Shown here in pieces: positions 8,910-59,958 of a stretch of 64,000 nt of DNA. The first letter of the stretch is position 1, and each line of letters begins with the position of its first letter. The translations under genes and the position numbers were made by a program. Where the stretch lies: contig OZ223481.1 in the NCBI GenBank assembly GCA_965140785.1, positions 672,001-736,000 on the forward strand. Direction: 5' to 3'. The notes below the pieces were generated by a model. That model ran no database searches and was not told the DNA's origin. It was given only the letters and a program-made list of their open reading frames with translations. The stretch comes from an uncultured Ruficoccus sp. GTDB lineage: Bacteria; Verrucomicrobiota; Verrucomicrobiia; Opitutales; Cerasicoccaceae.

Positions 8910-9206
8910 CTAACGTTTCATAGCTCCACTGCGCATCAGCAGGGTTGAGCGGCCGGGTTTTTCCGGCACAGGGTCGTGACCGCCAGGGTGGAACGGGTGG
9001 CAGCGGAAAATCCGCAGTAGGGCCATCCAGCTACCGCGCCACAGGCCGAAGCGCAGCAGGCTCAGGCGAGCGTACTCCGAACAGGTCGGGTGGAAGCGGC
9101 AGCCCGCATTGGGCCCGAGCAGGAGGCGTTTCATGGGAGAAAACACGACCTGATAGACCACCACGAGGGCGGCCGCGGCTCGGGCGGACAGGCTGGGAGG
9201 GTTCAC
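8910..9206 (-). CDS. yidD: membrane protein insertion efficiency factor
   Basis: [11 protein letters not shown] and [17 protein letters not shown]; start GTG 9206 (overlapping rnpA stop) or ATG 9218. Confidence 0.9.
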
Positions 9207-9553
9207 GGAAGGCGGCATTTTTTCGCCGCACGCAGGTATTGCTCCTGCAATTCGGCGAAAGTCAGTTGGTCAAATTGGGAACGGACAATGATGAGGACAT
9301 CGCATTCCGGCGGCAAGCATTCCTGGTTGAGCCGGAAAATCTCCCGCACCTGGCGCTTGGCCCGGTTGCGTTTGACGGCGTTGCCCACTCGGCGCGAGGC
9401 GATAACGCCCAGGCGGCGCTGCCCCGGAGGCACTCCCTCGCGCAAAGGATAGATGCGCATAATAAAAGCGTCGCAGTCGGCCCGGAAGCCTTCCCGGCGC
9501 GGCCGGTCGAAGTCAGCCCGCGTGCGCAGGTGCTGAGCGGCCCGGAAGCGCAT
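9203..9553 (-). CDS. rnpA: ribonuclease P protein component
   Basis: [21 protein letters not shown] motif; downstream of rpmH. Confidence 0.92.
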
Positions 9554-9565
9554 CGGTGGGCGAGG

Positions 9566-9703
9566 TTAGACTTGCGTCAGACGCTTGCGGCCCTTGGCGC
9601 GGCGGGCGGTGAGGACCTTGCGGCCCCCGCGGGTCTTCATACGGGCGCGAAAGCCGAACTTGCGGATGCGCTTCACGCGGTGCGGACGATAGGTTGGTTG
9701 CAT
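9566..9703 (-). CDS. rpmH: 50S ribosomal protein L34
   Basis: Not in the ORF track; manual translation [45 protein letters not shown]. Confidence 0.95.
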
Positions 9704-9965
9704 GGTAGGTGCTGGTTAGAAGTTGGGAAATTGCGAAACCGCCTGAGAAAAGCGTTTTTTAGGCATGAGTCAAGCTTTGCTGAGGGAGAATACGCACCGT
9801 GTAAAAATCTTGTACTCATGAAAAATACCGGAACGGCTGCTCAAGCGGCCCTTTCTGTCCTTTGCGGGGAGGGTTTTATGAGTAATAAGCCCGTTCAGAT
9901 CCCCTACTGATTTTAGGTTTTACTTTTTTTTATTAATTGGATACAAAAAAAGAACAAAAAACAGT

Positions 9966-9992
9966 TAAAGGGCTTGGGAACTTCTCCGATAA
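9966..9992 (+). promoter_or_regulatory. sigma-28 (FliA/WhiG)-type promoter
   Basis: TAAA(9966-9969)-N15-TCCGATAA(9985-9992) versus consensus TAAA-N15-GCCGATAA; conserved at the same distance in the paralog. Confidence 0.65.
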
Positions 9993-10016
9993 GACGACTC
10001 GAACTATTTTATAGAT

Positions 10017-10922
10017 ATGCATACTACGAAATTCGCCATCCTTGCCGGCAGCCTGTCTCTGCTCATGGCTGCCCCCTTCGCATCCGGCGTTACTTACGCT
10101 ACCGATGATTTTGAATCCTATTCCGCTGGCTCTATTAATAATCAAGGCGGAGGTTCCGGCTGGTCCGGAAACTGGGCCGGGGGAGCCGGCCAGAGTATCG
10201 TCGATATGACGGGTAACGAGCTCAGCTACACGGTGAACGGTGGTAACACCATCAGTGGTGGCAACCGTTCCCTCCAGTTGAGTGGGACCAGCGAGATGGC
10301 GGCCAGCCGCGCATTATCCAGCCCGGAGAACGGCACGATCTACATCAGCTACCTGATGCGCGTGACGGGTACGACGATCCAGAACAACGACTTCGCCAGC
10401 ATGTGGCTGAACGAGCCCGGCGTTGCCGCGACGAATCCCGGCCCCTCCACCGGATTCAAGGCCAACAATGGGAACGGCACGGGCACAGAAGACTTCTTTA
10501 TCCGTCCCAACTATGACGGTAACCCCACCCATGCCGGCTATGCCGGAGATGTTGCCATGGATACCACCTATCTGGTGGTGGCCAAGTTCGAAGCCAGCGG
10601 TGGCGCCGGGACCAACTACGACACTTTCAGCCTCTGGATCAATCCCGACGCCTGGGATGAATATAATCCCGATGTGACTTATACCCGCACGAGTGACTGG
10701 GACGAGGTCGGCGTGATCGGCTTCCGTTCGGCCAACCTGAATACGTCCAGCGTCTATTTCGATAACTATTCGGTCACCGACAATTTCGAGGAATCCATTG
10801 GTGGGTTCGCTCCGACTGTGGTGCCCTTTGATCCAGGTTCCGGCCTGGGAATGGCTTTCGTCGGCTGGTTTGCCTGGCGCCGCTTCAAGCGTCGTCTGAG
10901 GGACAAGCAGGCGGCTGCTTAA
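10017..10922 (+). CDS. secreted surface protein with variant PEP-CTERM-like sorting signal (VPFDPG), copy 1
   Basis: Signal peptide; Gly/Asn/Thr-rich body; C-terminus VPFDPGSGLGMAFVGWFAWRRFKRRLRDKQAAA (motif + TM + basic cluster). Confidence 0.85.
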   Translation: MHTTKFAILAGSLSLLMAAPFASGVTYATDDFESYSAGSINNQGGGSGWSGNWAGGAGQSIVDMTGNELSYTVNGGNTISGGNRSLQLSGTSEMAASRALSSPENGTIYISYLMRVTGTTIQNNDFASMWLNEPGVAATNPGPSTGFKANNGNGTGTEDFFIRPNYDGNPTHAGYAGDVAMDTTYLVVAKFEASGGAGTNYDTFSLWINPDAWDEYNPDVTYTRTSDWDEVGVIGFRSANLNTSSVYFDNYSVTDNFEESIGGFAPTVVPFDPGSGLGMAFVGWFAWRRFKRRLRDKQAAA

Positions 10923-10930
10923 ATTTTTAC

Positions 10931-10959
10931 GGGGTCCTCTCCACGGGGGACCCCTTTTT
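10931..10959 (+). terminator. intrinsic terminator
   Basis: ggggtcctc...gggggacccc followed by T5. Confidence 0.7.
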
Positions 10960-10998
10960 ACGTCTGTCCTCTTCTTAAGCTCTCCTGTTTTACGCCTT

Positions 10999-11727
10999 AT
11001 GTCCTCCAGTGTGCTGTCGCTGCCGTCTGACAATCGGACGTCAACCCGTAGTTTTTTGCGCATTATCGGTTGGGCCCTGCTTTTGCTGGGCCTGATTGAT
11101 TATACTTACATCCTGATCGGGACGGATTGGATGAATCCGGTGGCCGAGCTGCGGACGGGGGGGCGCCTGGCCGAGCACATCGTGGCTCCGCTGCTGGGCT
11201 TGCTCTTCCTTCTGATCCCCGTCGGGGGGGATAAGTTTACCGTGGGCGAGGCCCGCGCACGTGCCCGTTTGGCCCGTTTGAGTCTGCTGCTGGGTATTTT
11301 TAGCCTGGCGCTGGTGCCGTTCATCCTGATCAGCGCCATCCGTATCCATCGCGCCTACGACAAGCAGGTGAGCACCTGGGTGAATCAGCAGGAAGAGCTG
11401 ACCGAGGGAGCGATCAAGAAACTCAACGACAAGCGCAGCCATGAGGAGGTGGAGGCCTTTGTGAGACCGCTTCCATTGGATGAAAACATGTTTTACGAGC
11501 CTGACTTGGAGGTCCTTAAGGAAAACTTGATTGAGAACTTCCACGAGATGAACACCGGTAATATCGAGCGCGCGAAGGCCCAGTTGGGCGCACGTCTGCG
11601 CAGCGTCTGGACGGACGCGGCCAAGTGGATGTTGACCGCCCTCATTGGGGCCGTGTCCTATTGGTTGATCGGGTGGAAAGGGCGCCGCTACGCGCGCTTG
11701 GCTGCCTCCGCCAAGGGGAAGAAGTAA
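10999..11727 (+). CDS. HpsJ-like membrane protein
   Basis: Three TMs + coiled region + C-terminal TM; LRIIGWALLLLGLID..WMNPVAELRTGGRLAEH..PLLGL and KWMLTALI resemble HpsJ-family motifs recalled from cyanobacteria. Confidence 0.7.
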   Translation: MSSSVLSLPSDNRTSTRSFLRIIGWALLLLGLIDYTYILIGTDWMNPVAELRTGGRLAEHIVAPLLGLLFLLIPVGGDKFTVGEARARARLARLSLLLGIFSLALVPFILISAIRIHRAYDKQVSTWVNQQEELTEGAIKKLNDKRSHEEVEAFVRPLPLDENMFYEPDLEVLKENLIENFHEMNTGNIERAKAQLGARLRSVWTDAAKWMLTALIGAVSYWLIGWKGRRYARLAASAKGKK

Positions 11728-11924
11728 AAAACTCTGCTCTCTAAAGAAGGTGGAAGGCCTTATTTCCCCCCTTTTTTAAACAGGAAGGCGAAAAAAAGCG
11801 CCCAGCTCGTCATTTTTGCCGCTGACGTGGCGGCCATAAGGTTATGGCACCCTTTAGGTGCCCTACTGCCTTTTGGTTTTACTCTTTCTTATAAAATGCA
11901 TACAAAAAAATAATAAAATTCTGC

Positions 11925-11951
11925 TAAAGGGCAAAGAAATAGCTCCGATAA
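11925..11951 (+). promoter_or_regulatory. sigma-28 (FliA/WhiG)-type promoter
   Basis: TAAA(11925-11928)-N15-TCCGATAA(11944-11951), same spacing to ATG as copy 1. Confidence 0.65.
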
Positions 11952-11975
11952 GACGAACCGCACCATTTTATAGAT

Positions 11976-12878
11976 ATGCATACCAAGAAATTTGCCATCC
12001 TTGCCGGCAGCCTGTCTCTGCTCATGGCTGCCCCCTTCGCATCCGGTGTTACTTATGCCGTAGATGACTTTGAGTCTTATTCAGTGGGTTCCATCGCTGG
12101 CAATAACGGCGGTACCGGCTGGGCTGGCGCCTGGTCTGGAGCTCCCGGCCAGGGTGTCGTCGACACCTCCTCCAATCCGCTGACCTACACTGTAAACGGC
12201 GGGAACACGCTGACCGGCGGTAACAAGTCGCTCCAACTGACGGGCTCCACCCAGTATGCGGCCTCCCGCGATCTGGCCAGCCCGCAAACCGGCGCGATTT
12301 ACATCAGCTATCTGATGCGCGTGGACGGGACGACGATTCAGGACAACGATTTCGCCAGCATGTGGCTGAACGCCCCCGGCACCGCCGCGAGCAATCCCGG
12401 CCCCTCCACCGGCTTTAAGGCTAACAACGGCGACGGTGCGGGTACCGAAGACTTCTTCATCCGCCCCTATCATGACGGCAACAACGCCGGCTACGCGGGG
12501 GACGTGAACCTCGGCGAAACCTATCTGGTCGTGGCCAAGTTCGAAGCCAGCGGTGCCAACGGGGCCAACTACGACACCTTTAGCCTCTGGGTGAATCCGG
12601 ATGCCTGGGACGAATTTGCCCCGGACGCCACTTATTACGGGGAGAGCTACATCACGCAGCTCAATACGCTGGGCTTCCGCTCGGCCAACCTCGACAATGG
12701 TACCTCCGTCCTGATCGACAACTTCACCACCACGGACAACTTTGAGGAGTCCATCGGTGGATTCAGCCCGACCACGGTCCCCTTCGATCCGGGGGCCGGA
12801 CTTGGGATGGCTTTCGTTGGCTGGTTCGCCTGGCGCCGCTTCAAGCGTCGTTTGAGCGACAAGCAGGCAGCTGCTTAA
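11976..12878 (+). CDS. secreted surface protein with VPFDPG sorting signal, copy 2
   Basis: Clear paralog of 10017..10922; C-terminus VPFDPGAGLGMAFVGWFAWRRFKRRLSDKQAAA. Confidence 0.85.
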   Translation: MHTKKFAILAGSLSLLMAAPFASGVTYAVDDFESYSVGSIAGNNGGTGWAGAWSGAPGQGVVDTSSNPLTYTVNGGNTLTGGNKSLQLTGSTQYAASRDLASPQTGAIYISYLMRVDGTTIQDNDFASMWLNAPGTAASNPGPSTGFKANNGDGAGTEDFFIRPYHDGNNAGYAGDVNLGETYLVVAKFEASGANGANYDTFSLWVNPDAWDEFAPDATYYGESYITQLNTLGFRSANLDNGTSVLIDNFTTTDNFEESIGGFSPTTVPFDPGAGLGMAFVGWFAWRRFKRRLSDKQAAA

Positions 12879-12884
12879 ATTTTA

Positions 12885-12917
12885 AGAGGGGCCCTCACCA
12901 TGGGGCTCCTTTTTTTT
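12885..12917 (+). terminator. intrinsic terminator
   Basis: GC-rich hairpin ggggccc...ggggctcc followed by a T run. Confidence 0.65.
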
Positions 12918-12971
12918 AACAGGAAGTCCGGAAAGGACGTAAAGCAGGCTCATGCAGGGGTCTTCGGCCTT

Positions 12972-13406
12972 TCAACCCGCCTGAGACAAAAAGCTTAACG
13001 CGGCGCTGTAGCCGCTGAAGCCGAGCCCGGAGATGACGGCCTCGCAGACCGGGGCAGTCAAGCTCTTGTGGCGAAATTCCTCGCGCTGGTAGATGTTGGA
13101 GATGTGCACCTCCACGCAGCGCAGGCCGGTCCCGGCGATGGCGTCGCGCAGGGCCACGCTCGTATGGGTGAAGGCGCCGGGATTGACGACCGCGCCCGCG
13201 AACCCCGCGTCGGCCCAGGCAGCAAGCTTGTCGATCAGCTCGCCCTCATGGTTGGACTGGAAGCAATCGAGGCTCACCCCGGCCGTGTCGGCTTCTTGCT
13301 GGAGCTGGGCGAGCAGGTCGTCGAGGGTGGCATGACCGTAGATGTCCGGTTCGCGCTTGCCGAGCCGGTTCAGGTTGGGACCGTTGAGGATGCCGATTTG
13401 CTTCAT
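12972..13406 (-). CDS. aroQ: type II 3-dehydroquinate dehydratase
   Basis: LNGPNLNRLGKREPDIYG, QSNHEG, NPGAFTHTS, EVHISNIYQREEFRH. Confidence 0.95.
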   Translation of the reverse strand: MKQIGILNGPNLNRLGKREPDIYGHATLDDLLAQLQQEADTAGVSLDCFQSNHEGELIDKLAAWADAGFAGAVVNPGAFTHTSVALRDAIAGTGLRCVEVHISNIYQREEFRHKSLTAPVCEAVISGLGFSGYSAALSFLSQAG

Positions 13407-13615
13407 GGGGAGGAGTTTTACCGCAGAAAAACACGAAAGGGGAGACTGAAATTGCAGGACAGAGTCCTGCACCTGTGATCTTTACGGATCACGGATGCTG
13501 CCGCCAACGCTGCAGCATGGGCCGTAGTGGTGGTCGCCAACTCAAACGAACTTCGTAAGCCTCGTACAGGCAGGGTACGAATCTTGTAGGTAGATTTCCA
13601 TCTATAGCGAGCAAT

Positions 13616-22838: not shown

Positions 22839-23610
22839 TCAGGTCAACGATCGATTTACGGGGCGTGAGCCGCGAGCGCCGAAGCGACGGCGCAGCAGGA
22901 CCACCCCGAGGCAGGCGGCCCCGGCCATGGCGGCATAGGTGGACGGTTCGGGCACGACATTAAAGGTGTAGGTGGCGGTATCGCTTTGCAGGATGCCCTC
23001 GATGGTGCCGGTCACCGTGAACTCCAGCTCATAGACGCCCGCCTCGGTGAAGCCCCAGTTGACGTGCTGGTGACCGGAAATGCCGAGGTCCAGCGTGATG
23101 GCGTCGGCGGCGCTGATGCCGTCGGCGGTGCTCATGAAAAAGGTCGGCGTGAAGCCGCCCACCCAAACCGAGAATTCGCCTGAGGCGGGCATGTTTGCCC
23201 CTACCAGGGTGAGCGTGAGGGTATTGTCGTCGAAAGTTCCGAGCGTGATTTCCTCGCCGCCGACTCCGAGGTACGGCGCGTTCAGGTCCGCCGCGCCGCC
23301 TGCCCCGAGGTTGCTATCGGGCAGGTACCAGTAGTTTCTCACCCGCGCTGACACCGAGCGGGTCCCAGGCGCTGCCGCTGGGGCGGCCGCCGTTGCTATT
23401 GACAAAGGCGTAGCTGCTTTGCGGCACGACGATGACGGCCTCGTCGGGCGCGTATTCGGTTTCGGTGGATTCGTCGTGGACGTGCAGCTCCAGTTCGGTG
23501 CCTTCGCCCAGGCCGAGATCCATGTGCCCGGAGGTGAGGTTGACCGCTCCCTGAGAGATGCTGACAGAAATAAGGGCGCCCAGCCCGATCAGTAAGGTAG
23601 ATGACTTCAT
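22839..23610 (-). pseudogene. PEP-CTERM protein with TIGR03769/choice-of-anchor-M-like domain, frameshifted near 23336 (possibly assembly error)
   Basis: Signal peptide + GHMDL..LHVHDE in ORF 23314..23619; GHQHVNWGFTEAGVYELEF and VPEPSTYAAMAG...RRR in ORF 22839..23405. Confidence 0.8.
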
Positions 23611-35356: not shown

Positions 35357-36001
35357 TTAGCGGCCTTTAGTCCGCCGGAATCTCCGCCAGCTCAGGGTGA
35401 TGAGCAAGGCCCCGGCGGCGAAAGTCGCGGCGTAGGTGGTCGGTTCGGGGACCACTACCTGCTGGTGCCCTTGCCAACGGCCTCCGTCGACGTTGAAAGC
35501 CGCTCCGCTTCCCCAGATCAGGACGAGCCGATCGATACCGCTGAGGTTGAACAAATCGTAATTTTCGTTATAGAAATGCAGGGTGTAGTCGGTCGTCCCG
35601 GTGCTGACCGGGCCCACCGCGTCGCCCACGGAGATCGTTCCGACGTTCAACCAGGGATATTGGCCGTCAAAGCCGGTGCTGTCCACCAGGCTCTCGCCGA
35701 TGTTGAAGTTCGGCTCATCCACGCTGTACGACGACTCGATCACGTAATTGACAAGGTCGTTACTACTGTCCACGGCCGCGATGTAAATCTTGTCGGTCTC
35801 TTCCTTCGGGGGCGTCCCGAACTGATCCCCGATCACGATGCTTCCGGCGCTTATGGTGATGCTCAGGGAGCGGGCGTTAAACTCGTTGATGGTAAAGCTG
35901 ACCTGCGCGTGCACCGCGGTCGCGAAGGCTAACACCCCAAGCAGGAGCGAGGCACGCTTCCAGGTTTTGAAGGAAAGACAATGCGACGGTTTTTGTGGCA
36001 T
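35357..36001 (-). CDS. PEP-CTERM sorting domain protein
   Basis: Signal peptide (..AFATAVHA); VPEPTTYAATFAAGALLITLSWRRFRR. Confidence 0.85.
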   Translation of the reverse strand: MPQKPSHCLSFKTWKRASLLLGVLAFATAVHAQVSFTINEFNARSLSITISAGSIVIGDQFGTPPKEETDKIYIAAVDSSNDLVNYVIESSYSVDEPNFNIGESLVDSTGFDGQYPWLNVGTISVGDAVGPVSTGTTDYTLHFYNENYDLFNLSGIDRLVLIWGSGAAFNVDGGRWQGHQQVVVPEPTTYAATFAAGALLITLSWRRFRRTKGR

Positions 36002-36046
36002 AATGATAAATAAAACTAATAAAGATGATTAAATTTCACAATAATG

Positions 36047-58501: not shown

Positions 58502-59958
58502 ATGACAAAGACAGCGGTTTCCCAGCGCACTCCTTGGCTCGGGGCTGTCATACTCCTTCTCGCGGCGCAGACGGTACTGGTTGCCGATTATGCTTCCAGC
58601 TACGACTTGCGGGACTACGGCTTGGTCACCCGCGTCGAGGACCAGGGGGATCTCGGCGACTGCTGGGCCTTCGCCTCGACCACGACCTTCGAGAGCGCCG
58701 TGCTCAAGTCCGGGCTCGAGACGGATCCCTACAGCCCGAATGTCCAGCTCTTGCAGTGGCACCTGGCCACCCGCAGCGGCGTCTCGCTGGTGCTCACGCC
58801 CACTTTCGAGGACGGGTACCCGAGCTACCAGGGCTGGGGCGGTAACGTATATGAATCCGTCGCCTACTATATACGCGGCCGGGGAGCCTGGAACTCGCCG
58901 GAGCCGGACCCCAGCATTCCGCAGATCGGTGGTGGCGCTGTCCTTCTGGGCTCAAGCCCACTCAACGACTACCCGCTGCAGGCGGCCGAGTCCGGCCAGG
59001 ATCTCAGCCCCTACATCCCGCCGGTATCCCAGCCCCTGGCCTACGGCGTGCGCAACGCCTACATGATCAACAAAGACAACTATTCCGCCGCCCAACAGGT
59101 CAACCGCATCAAGTCCGCCCTCAACAATTACGGGGCGGTGGGCACGACTATCTATATGGATCAGTCGCAGGTCAACCCGACGACGTACACCTATCTTTAT
59201 GAGGGTCGAAGAACACGAACCACGTAGTGACCATCGTCGGATGGGACGATAACAAGGCGGTCACGGGCGCTACCAGTAACGGCGCCTGGCTCATACAGAA
59301 CTCCTGGGGAGACGACTGGGCGGATGCCGGCTACTTCTGGATTTCCTATGAAGACACGCATGCCGGTAAGACCTCGAACATGGCGCTCGAGGTTATGTCG
59401 ATGGGCGAGTACGCCTCCACGGTGCTGCAAAATCAGCTATTTTTCCCCGGACAGGTGCGTCAACTGGAGGATCTCAGCACCATGCAACTGGCCAGTATCC
59501 TGACCTCCTCCGAGGCGGGCGTACTTGATGCTATTGGCATCGTCACTTACTACGACGAGCTCATTGTCACCATCAGCATCTATGTCAGTTGGGATGACGT
59601 GAATAACATGCCCGATACCCTCTTGCCGGAGTACACGGTGACGACGCAAATCGACCTGGCCGGGTATCACCTGATCGACCTGGAGGAGGACTACGCCTAC
59701 TTCGCCGACCAGGAGATTGTTGTCGTGGTCGAGTACGAAGGGGACGTATTTTACTATGACGACGAAAGCGAGCTGCACGAAGGCGTTTCCTATGTCTTCG
59801 ACGGCGAGGAGTGGGTGGACCTGGCTCTGGTCGATTCGCCCGGCACGCTGTTTGTCAAAGGCTACACGCTCGTGCCTGAGCCCGCCGAATGGGCTGCGCT
59901 GGCCGGGCTGGCCGCCGTCGTGTTCGTCGTGATCCGCCGCCGGAAGGCGGTTGCCTAG
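58502..59958 (+). pseudogene. C1 (papain-like) peptidase with PEP-CTERM anchor, frameshifted near 59204 (possibly assembly error)
   Basis: QGDLGDCWAF; NHVVTIVGWDD, IQNSWG and VPEPAEWAALAGLAAVVFVVIRRRK in the second frame. Confidence 0.82.

Follow-up and report, generated by a model that had tools for sequence, protein, structure and literature searches.

Does a bacterium that sorts most of its tailed secreted proteins through a general PEP-CTERM/exosortase system also operate a second system with a signal of its own? The question is raised by a three-gene locus in a 64,000-nucleotide stretch of contig OZ223481.1 (positions 672,001 to 736,000; hereafter the window) from an uncultured Ruficoccus sp. 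of the phylum Verrucomicrobiota. On the plus strand, three open reading frames (ORFs) encode two secreted paralogs with a VPFDPG motif in their C-terminal tails, A (10017-10922, 301 residues) and B (11976-12878, 300 residues), and, between them, an HpsJ-like membrane protein (10999-11727, 242 residues). Exosortase systems decide the surface display of proteins in many environmental bacteria, and to our knowledge little is known of their mechanism beyond the enzyme itself. The analyses described below led us to consider it likely that the module is part of a second, dedicated sorting subsystem with a CrtA-like exosortase, which acts beside the general PEP-CTERM system. The components of this subsystem are dispersed over three loci in the genome of the Ruficoccus-like verrucomicrobium.

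VPF tails and PEP-CTERM tails in the genome

The ORF translations bore out the initial annotation of the window, according to which A and B end in VPFDPG, a transmembrane helix, and RRFKRRL. The C-terminus is VPFDPGSGLGMAFVGWFAWRRFKRRLRDKQAAA in A and VPFDPGAGLGMAFVGWFAWRRFKRRLSDKQAAA in B, and the common pattern is VPFDPG(S/A)GLGMAFVGWFAW-RRFKRRL, followed by seven further residues. The two proteins have the three-part layout of the PFE-CTERM type (VPFD, PGSGLGMAFVGWFAW, and RRFKRRL) behind an N-terminal helix that is signal-like as read by eye, with D at the position where the PFE-CTERM motif has E. The tails are encoded at 10821-10919 (+) in A and 12777-12875 (+) in B. A and B are 74.2% identical overall, and their 33-residue tails are 93.9% identical, compared with 71.8% for the passengers. 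The same holds more widely: the tail is 84-94% identical among proteins whose passengers are 67-72% identical (84-91% versus 67-71% in comparisons with orthologs). Two distant homologs of the passenger, P0010 and P0011 (28-33% identical), carry ordinary VPEP/IPEP tails, and therefore the tail is an exchangeable and specific address.

The window encodes three further sorted proteins, at 22839-23588 (-), 35357-36028 (-), and 59203-59958 (+), which had been described as using VPEP. They do, and all three passed the NCBIfam model PEP_CTERM (TIGR02595; 18.6, 24.2, and 18.9 bits, respectively; cut-off 16 bits) with no match to PFE_CTERM (NF050011; cut-off 24 bits). Two further matches in the first of them are to a 'choice-of-anchor M' domain (66.7 bits) and to a TIGR03769 repeat (47.4 bits). 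The tails of A and B showed no PEP-CTERM match, either to TIGR02595 or to Pfam PF07589, at E<=1. When the entire genome (50 contigs, 4.36 Mb, 90.85% complete) was scanned in six frames, a VPF[DG] motif followed by a helix and a basic cluster was seen in only three tails, compared with about 95 tails of the PE type, 78 of these being PEP. An HpsJ-like gene adjoins each of the three VPF tails, which goes beyond coincidence. The third VPF tail belongs to a 272-residue protein on contig 43 (C43), which ends in VAVPFGVNPLPGLALIGFFGWRRLRKRL... with the motif VPFGVNP. This protein passed PFE_CTERM (32 bits), and immediately downstream of its gene follows a second HpsJ_like_A gene (156.7 bits). The proposal that the VPF signal is distinct from PEP-CTERM and works in parallel with it is supported by these results, since VPF tails make up three of about 98 tails in the genome and A and B match PFE_CTERM only. 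Existing annotation lists the VPFDPG proteins as either 'hypothetical' or 'PEP-CTERM'. On C43, the pair of tailed protein (hereafter client) and HpsJ-like protein is followed on the same strand by a gene for a 169-residue hydrophobic protein with no family match (L031:7053-7562), which might belong to the same module.

The HpsJ-like protein and its paralogs

The resemblance of the middle gene product to HpsJ had been proposed from short motifs, and a hidden Markov model (HMM) search of 10999-11727 against the HpsJ-family models confirmed it. The protein passed NF050013 HpsJ_like_A, named 'HpsJ-like protein, cyanoexosortase A-associated' (147.5 bits, cut-off 140; model positions 3-217), and NF038305 HpsJ_fam (102.9 bits, cut-off 60). 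The score with NF050014 HpsJ_like_B, 42.5 bits, is far under the cut-off of 260. PF28006 (HpsJ) is among the precomputed assignments of the protein; our own Pfam profile search gave no PF28006 match. Among the atlas clusters, those closest to the protein are PF28006 HpsJ, which are most frequent in Cyanobacteriota, and the ortholog in Ruficoccus sp. ZRK36 is already named HpsJ family protein in NCBI/UniRef.

The motifs on which the proposal was based, LRIIGWALLLLGLID, MNPVAELRTGGRLAEHIVAPLLGL, and KWMLTAL, are present in the translation. Hydropathy analysis displayed three strong hydrophobic segments. In the AlphaFold2 model (23 sequences; pLDDT 89.6), helices span residues 10-40, 47-72, 82-144, and 170-240; they form four membrane helices, as the initial annotation had predicted, and the third and fourth are extended as a long antiparallel hairpin capped by short helices. 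A Foldseek search of this model against the PDB gave no match at E<=0.001. According to the positive-inside rule, the conserved NPxWEF-type loop and the hairpin probably face the periplasm, the side on which the active sites of exosortases and the VPF motif would be located.

In addition to the copies in the window and on C43, the genome has a third HpsJ-like paralog, which is shorter (68.7 bits, covering the N-terminal half of the model only). Its gene immediately precedes an exosortase gene on contig C10, the contig of the window. The unrooted HpsJ tree, one row of which (L046) is a wrong ORF, showed three well-supported orthogroups within the genus: one encoded beside the VPFDPG clients, one beside the VPFGVNP clients, and one beside the enzyme, all of them outside the cyanobacterial cluster. 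The enzyme-linked paralog (L008:2470-3222 on C10 of the source genome G000; orthologs in L023, L024, and L025) is without about 35 residues of the hairpin, and its equivalents in genomes G004 and G008 are full length.

A candidate dedicated exosortase

Three exosortase loci were found in the genome, on contig 34 (C34), contig 26 (C26), and C10. The C34 enzyme is the general exosortase, with 8TM_EpsH as its best NCBIfam match (90.7 bits). The C10 enzyme (G000:C10:496502-497224, 322 residues) is encoded 185 kb before the window. Its best NCBIfam match is cyanoexosortase A (CrtA, TIGR03763; 77.4 bits), followed by CrtB (42.9 bits) and CrtC (42.7 bits), with all others below 40 bits; relatives scored 46.9-132.5 bits on the CrtA model. 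The C10 enzyme belongs to the exosortase superfamily, as seen from PF09721 (82.8 bits, cut-off 25.7) and TIGR04178 (39.3 bits, cut-off 23), and its C189, R234, and H252 are invariant among 14 exosortase sequences in alignments that include relatives and cyanobacterial CrtA. The HpsJ gene that it adjoins is the third paralog and not the one in the window. The cyanoexosortase-like member that the initial annotation had recommended looking for is thus present, as a CrtA-like enzyme paired with an HpsJ paralog of its own. Complex prediction with the C10 exosortase and the window HpsJ-like protein, which was run without controls, gave scores of 0.01 and 0.00 (mark 0.32), which speak neither for nor against a complex.

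The third exosortase gene (G000:C26:28887-29671, L007) is split over two overlapping frames, which cover model positions 2-141 and 140-253. The split is a frameshift; the gene is a pseudogene, or else the assembly is in error here. The part in the downstream frame runs into a long C-terminal region within a 453-residue ORF.

Co-occurrence of tail, HpsJ-like protein, and exosortase

The distribution of the components was examined in 41 related genomes, including the source genome. HpsJ_like_A matches of at least 59 bits were found in eight of them (G000-G004, G008, G020, and G026), and one further genome gave only a partial match of 21 bits. PFE_CTERM matches above the cut-off occurred in exactly the same eight genomes, with five others showing sub-threshold partial matches only. 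An exosortase gene adjoins an HpsJ-like gene in all eight HpsJ-bearing genomes. Among the 22 PFE tails above the cut-off, eight are encoded 90-330 nucleotides upstream of an HpsJ match on the same strand, and one more lies within the exosortase locus of G008. The co-occurrence of tail and HpsJ-like gene in other genomes, on which the initial annotation had made its proposal depend, is therefore present, and it extends to the exosortase.

HpsJ_like_A was rare in a wider sample of the phylum (301 genomes, 148 genera), being found in three genomes, all of this genus. Among 151 genomes from the phylum of G336, the holder of the cyanobacterial locus L053, it was found in 53 at E<=1e-5, with 22 above the cut-off. 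An exhaustive HMM search for HpsJ_like_A returned 1178 cluster representatives at E<=1e-3.

Relationship to cyanobacterial CrtA loci

The enzymes of two of the eight genomes, G026 and G020 (539 and 555 residues, respectively), are CrtA-like (130 and 82 bits), and each possesses a C-terminal TIGR04153 'cyanoexosortase A system-associated' domain. The cyanobacterial enzymes in loci L048, L053, and L090 have the same CrtA plus TIGR04153 architecture. Eighty HpsJ-like A loci were found from an alignment of ten high-scoring search matches, and every locus with an organism name is cyanobacterial. An exosortase is encoded on the same strand in 64 of the 80 loci, upstream of the HpsJ gene in 55 and downstream in nine. 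Tail gene(s), HpsJ, and exosortase follow one another in this order in L037, L048, and L090. In P0048, a metagenomic protein of 560 residues, CrtA (282 bits) and HpsJ_like_A (266 bits) are naturally fused into one chain, and P0020, P0029, and P0099 contain two or three HpsJ-like A units in tandem.

Phylogenetic analysis, which had also been recommended, placed the verrucomicrobial enzymes with the CrtA types, one long-branch outgroup being misplaced. In a careful tree of 40 exosortases, all eight verrucomicrobial enzymes belong to one clan with the cyanobacterial CrtA types (97/92); three CrtB, one CrtC, and two further exosortases from Verrucomicrobia fall outside it.

The locus is a divergent verrucomicrobial member of the database-curated CrtA/PFE-CTERM/HpsJ-like system. 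Because NCBIfam models cover every part and the ZRK36 ortholog already bears the name HpsJ family protein, the kind is known, and what is new and divergent is the member. The idea of a cyanobacterial-style sorting subsystem in a non-cyanobacterium thus largely holds, and the word 'new' was overstated.

The paralogs A and B and the organization of the locus

No Pfam match was found for the product of gene A. Its N-terminus and that of B are signal-peptide-like as read by eye. The AlphaFold2 model of A, built from seven sequences, is a beta-sandwich (pLDDT 77), and a Foldseek search matched it to ERGIC-53, calreticulin, legume lectins, alginate lyase Aly36B, and glucuronan lyase (E 1e-8 to 1e-6, TM-scores 0.3-0.56). 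Because these matches are lectins and glucanases, the modelled passenger is predicted to be a concanavalin-A-like fold that binds or cleaves glycans.

Gene A is the more diverged paralog. It is 69-74% identical to the orthologs, and B, which is nearer than A to the orthologs in related species (82-84% versus 72-74%), is 84%, 82%, and 73% identical to P0007, P0008, and P0009, respectively. In the relatives' loci L012 and L014, only a single A/B-type gene is present, upstream of the HpsJ-like gene, and one of the two copies is therefore a recent duplicate. The duplicated unit comprises whole transcription units, each with about 115 nucleotides of upstream sequence and a terminator-like hairpin after the gene. 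The region upstream of A (9902-10016, +) is AT-rich and resembles a promoter or 5' untranslated region, and DNA alignment showed that a copy of it precedes B (11860-11975, +), the similarity beginning about 115 nucleotides before the ATG. A scan of 9400-13100 with the sigma-70 consensus gave no promoter match. The hairpin 3' of A (10931-10954, +) has a 10-bp stem with seven GC pairs and is followed by a T run; the one 3' of B (12893-12905, +) is weak and aligns with it. At the DNA level, A and B are nearly identical at their ends, in the signal peptide part (10017-10100 versus 11976-12060) and in the tail part (10821-10922 versus 12777-12878), whereas the middle contains many synonymous and non-synonymous differences. 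The near-identity could be due to gene conversion or to strong constraint at both ends.

The module is flanked by two housekeeping genes, rnpA (9203-9553, -; Pfam Ribonuclease_P) and aroQ (12972-13472, -; DHquinase_II), between which it sits like an inserted island. The G+C content of 10001-12000 in the window is 0.553, compared with about 0.61 in the adjacent 2-kb bins. The neighbours of the three loci taken together are rnpA, aroQ, and alanine-dehydrogenase-like, tRNA-editing, and EF-G genes. Elsewhere in the assembly, six contigs (C28, C41, C9, C44, C20, and C15) have a G+C content of 0.28-0.49, compared with about 0.55-0.66 in the remainder, and may be bin contamination or foreign or mobile DNA.

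A proposed mechanism and its alternatives

We propose that, after export of A and B by the Sec pathway, the tail helix would keep them in the inner membrane. At the periplasmic face, the short CrtA-like exosortase encoded on C10 would then recognize and cut the VPF motif, and the lectin-like passenger would be passed to the cell surface or matrix. The HpsJ-like proteins are presumed to be accessory subunits of the CrtA-like exosortase, with one paralog accompanying the enzyme and one accompanying each substrate family, because of their linkage to it, the CrtA-HpsJ fusion, and the co-occurrence of the genes. They may act on the periplasmic side as substrate-linked adaptors or escorts. The pattern of one paralog per client suggests, tentatively, that HpsJ is a client-specific adaptor. 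It is also conceivable, although we would not regard it as the expected outcome, that the HpsJ family as a whole are exosortase co-receptors, a class not recognized before. In such a scheme, the client-side paralog would bind the tail within the membrane or the periplasm and deliver the client to a CrtA-type exosortase common to all clients; the choice of substrate would then lie with the paralog instead of the enzyme.

Several observations weigh against a dedicated CrtA-like subsystem. The PFE_CTERM scores of A and B are below the cut-off (16.3 and 12.8 bits for the proteins; 16.8 and 15.0 bits for the tails alone), and a whole-genome search with this model at E<=0.1 failed to recover either tail. 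The C10 exosortase scored 77.4 bits on the CrtA model, well below the cut-off of 150 bits, and no TIGR04153 homolog was found in the 90.85% complete genome. No polysaccharide genes were found beside any of the three loci. The eight genomes with all components represent four genera, and hence few independent events. Among the 80 cyanobacterial HpsJ loci, a regular-expression search detected a PF-type tail gene within 6 kb in only four, so that the adjacency of tail and HpsJ genes is not general. The trees add further difficulties. In the careful tree, the C34 exosortase, intended as the outgroup, was drawn inside the CrtA clan on a branch of 3.39; the Ruficoccus enzyme clade was nested among the cyanobacterial enzymes in the quick tree but sister to the rest in the careful tree; and in the HpsJ tree, which is unrooted, the verrucomicrobial paralogs fall outside the cyanobacterial cluster. 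Because the trees disagree, the outgroup is misplaced, and the HpsJ tree has no root, an origin by transfer is no more than a possibility, in either direction.

The main alternative to a client-specific adaptor is a role of HpsJ with the acceptor or in export. The sorting system would be kept, and the task of HpsJ would be to provide or place the acceptor (a polysaccharide or a lipid) or to aid export, and not to recognize substrates. The founding HpsJ (Npun_F0077) is encoded in a hormogonium polysaccharide locus according to the accessible part of PMC10581220, and the accessible part of PMC5702739 states, citing others, that deletion of HpsJ alters polysaccharide composition. The long helical hairpin in our model could also reach into the periplasm. 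On the other hand, the absence of polysaccharide genes beside the three loci speaks against this role as well, and three conserved orthogroups, each with a different type of neighbour, fit substrate specificity better than a common acceptor. We regard this alternative as unlikely.

A second alternative departs further from a sorting subsystem: the tails might be permanent inner-membrane anchors that are never cut, with A, B, and the HpsJ-like protein forming a periplasm-facing complex of lectin and membrane partner, such as a glycan sensor, whose link to the exosortase is indirect. Both the seven-residue extension past the basic cluster and the very strong conservation of the tail are as expected for a stable interaction surface; the presence of a separate HpsJ paralog for each substrate gene is also in keeping with such a complex. 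However, in eight of eight genomes an HpsJ paralog shares an operon with an exosortase whose catalytic residues are intact, a CrtA-HpsJ fusion exists in nature, and gains and losses of PFE_CTERM tails, HpsJ-like genes, and the exosortase go hand in hand. Permanent anchoring thus appears improbable. It is very improbable that the VPFDPG tails are degenerate PEP-CTERM signals for the general exosortase and the HpsJ-like gene an unrelated neighbour, because, although the tails share the three-part layout of PEP-CTERM, those of A and B lie under the PFE_CTERM cut-off, the genome has a general exosortase with its roughly 95 PE-type tails, and UniRef names one ortholog 'PEP-CTERM sorting domain-containing', A and B gave no PEP_CTERM or PF07589 match at E<=1 and the three VPEP controls passed, every VPF tail of the genome adjoins an HpsJ gene, the parts co-occur in the same eight of 41 genomes even though most relatives have other exosortases, and the tail is nearly invariant between species.

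The dedicated CrtA-like subsystem, which we favour, shows the CrtA/PFE-CTERM/HpsJ-like branch outside cyanobacteria in a very reduced state, consisting of three clients, three HpsJ paralogs, and one enzyme. If HpsJ proteins are indeed co-receptors, this set would offer the simplest natural setting for demonstrating it, and the same property would explain the role of HpsJ in the motility polysaccharide of cyanobacteria. Since the near relatives that share these genes are Ruficoccus strains which have names and are in culture, both the role of HpsJ and the specificity of the variant signal are directly testable. The analysis also corrects the annotation, both of the VPFDPG proteins and of the enzyme, which falls under the cut-off of the CrtA model.

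Comparison with known systems

The general PEP-CTERM/exosortase system of the EpsH/XrtA type shares with the subsystem described here the three-part tail, the Sec signal, and a polytopic enzyme with Cys, Arg, and His, and a system of this type, with about 95 substrates, operates in the same genome. It differs in that the PEP_CTERM models do not recognize the tails of A and B, which have an enzyme of their own and an accessory family with no counterpart in the general system. The XrtD/VPLPA-CTERM and XrtC/VPDSG-CTERM pairs of NCBIfam are comparable as second exosortases with their own motif and few substrates per genome. However, the scores here are weak (28.6 bits on the XrtD model), and no HpsJ-type accessory is named for these pairs.

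The founding HpsJ (Npun_F0077), which NF050014 HpsJ_like_B represents, belongs to the same superfamily as the window protein, as judged from NF038305 (102.9 bits). The window protein, with 42.5 bits against a cut-off of 260, belongs instead to the A branch and is encoded outside a polysaccharide locus. In the literature searched, hpsJ appeared with hormogonium polysaccharide in passing mentions only. CrtB of Nostoc punctiforme processes tailed secreted proteins that mediate adhesion to surfaces and polysaccharide, as described in the accessible part of PMC12188702. According to the same part of that paper, the CrtB system combines PEP-CTERM signals with a Wzx/Wzy polysaccharide locus, and its exosortase is of a different subfamily, on the model of which the C10 enzyme scored 42.9 bits. 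The accessible text makes no mention of HpsJ, and this work, as far as its text is available, was the only experimental cyanoexosortase literature that we found. For the CrtA/PFE-CTERM/HpsJ-like branch, we found database models and, in the main texts searched, no paper; an earlier mention of a non-cyanobacterial CrtA system is possible. The term 'PFE-CTERM' did not occur in the literature searched, nor did 'cyanoexosortase A' in the main texts.

The closest relative is the cyanobacterial system of CrtA, PFE-CTERM, HpsJ-like A, and TIGR04153. The likeness lies in the HpsJ-like protein and the C43 tail, which pass the respective models, in the enzyme, whose best match is CrtA and which falls in the CrtA clan, and in the order of tail, HpsJ, and exosortase genes in L037, L048, and L090. 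The differences are equally clear. The system described here occurs in Verrucomicrobiota; its enzyme scores 77 bits against a cut-off of 150 and has no TIGR04153 domain in the genus; its motifs are VPFDPG and VPFGVNP instead of PFE, with the window tails below the cut-off; and its genes lie at three separate loci, each substrate family having an HpsJ paralog of its own.

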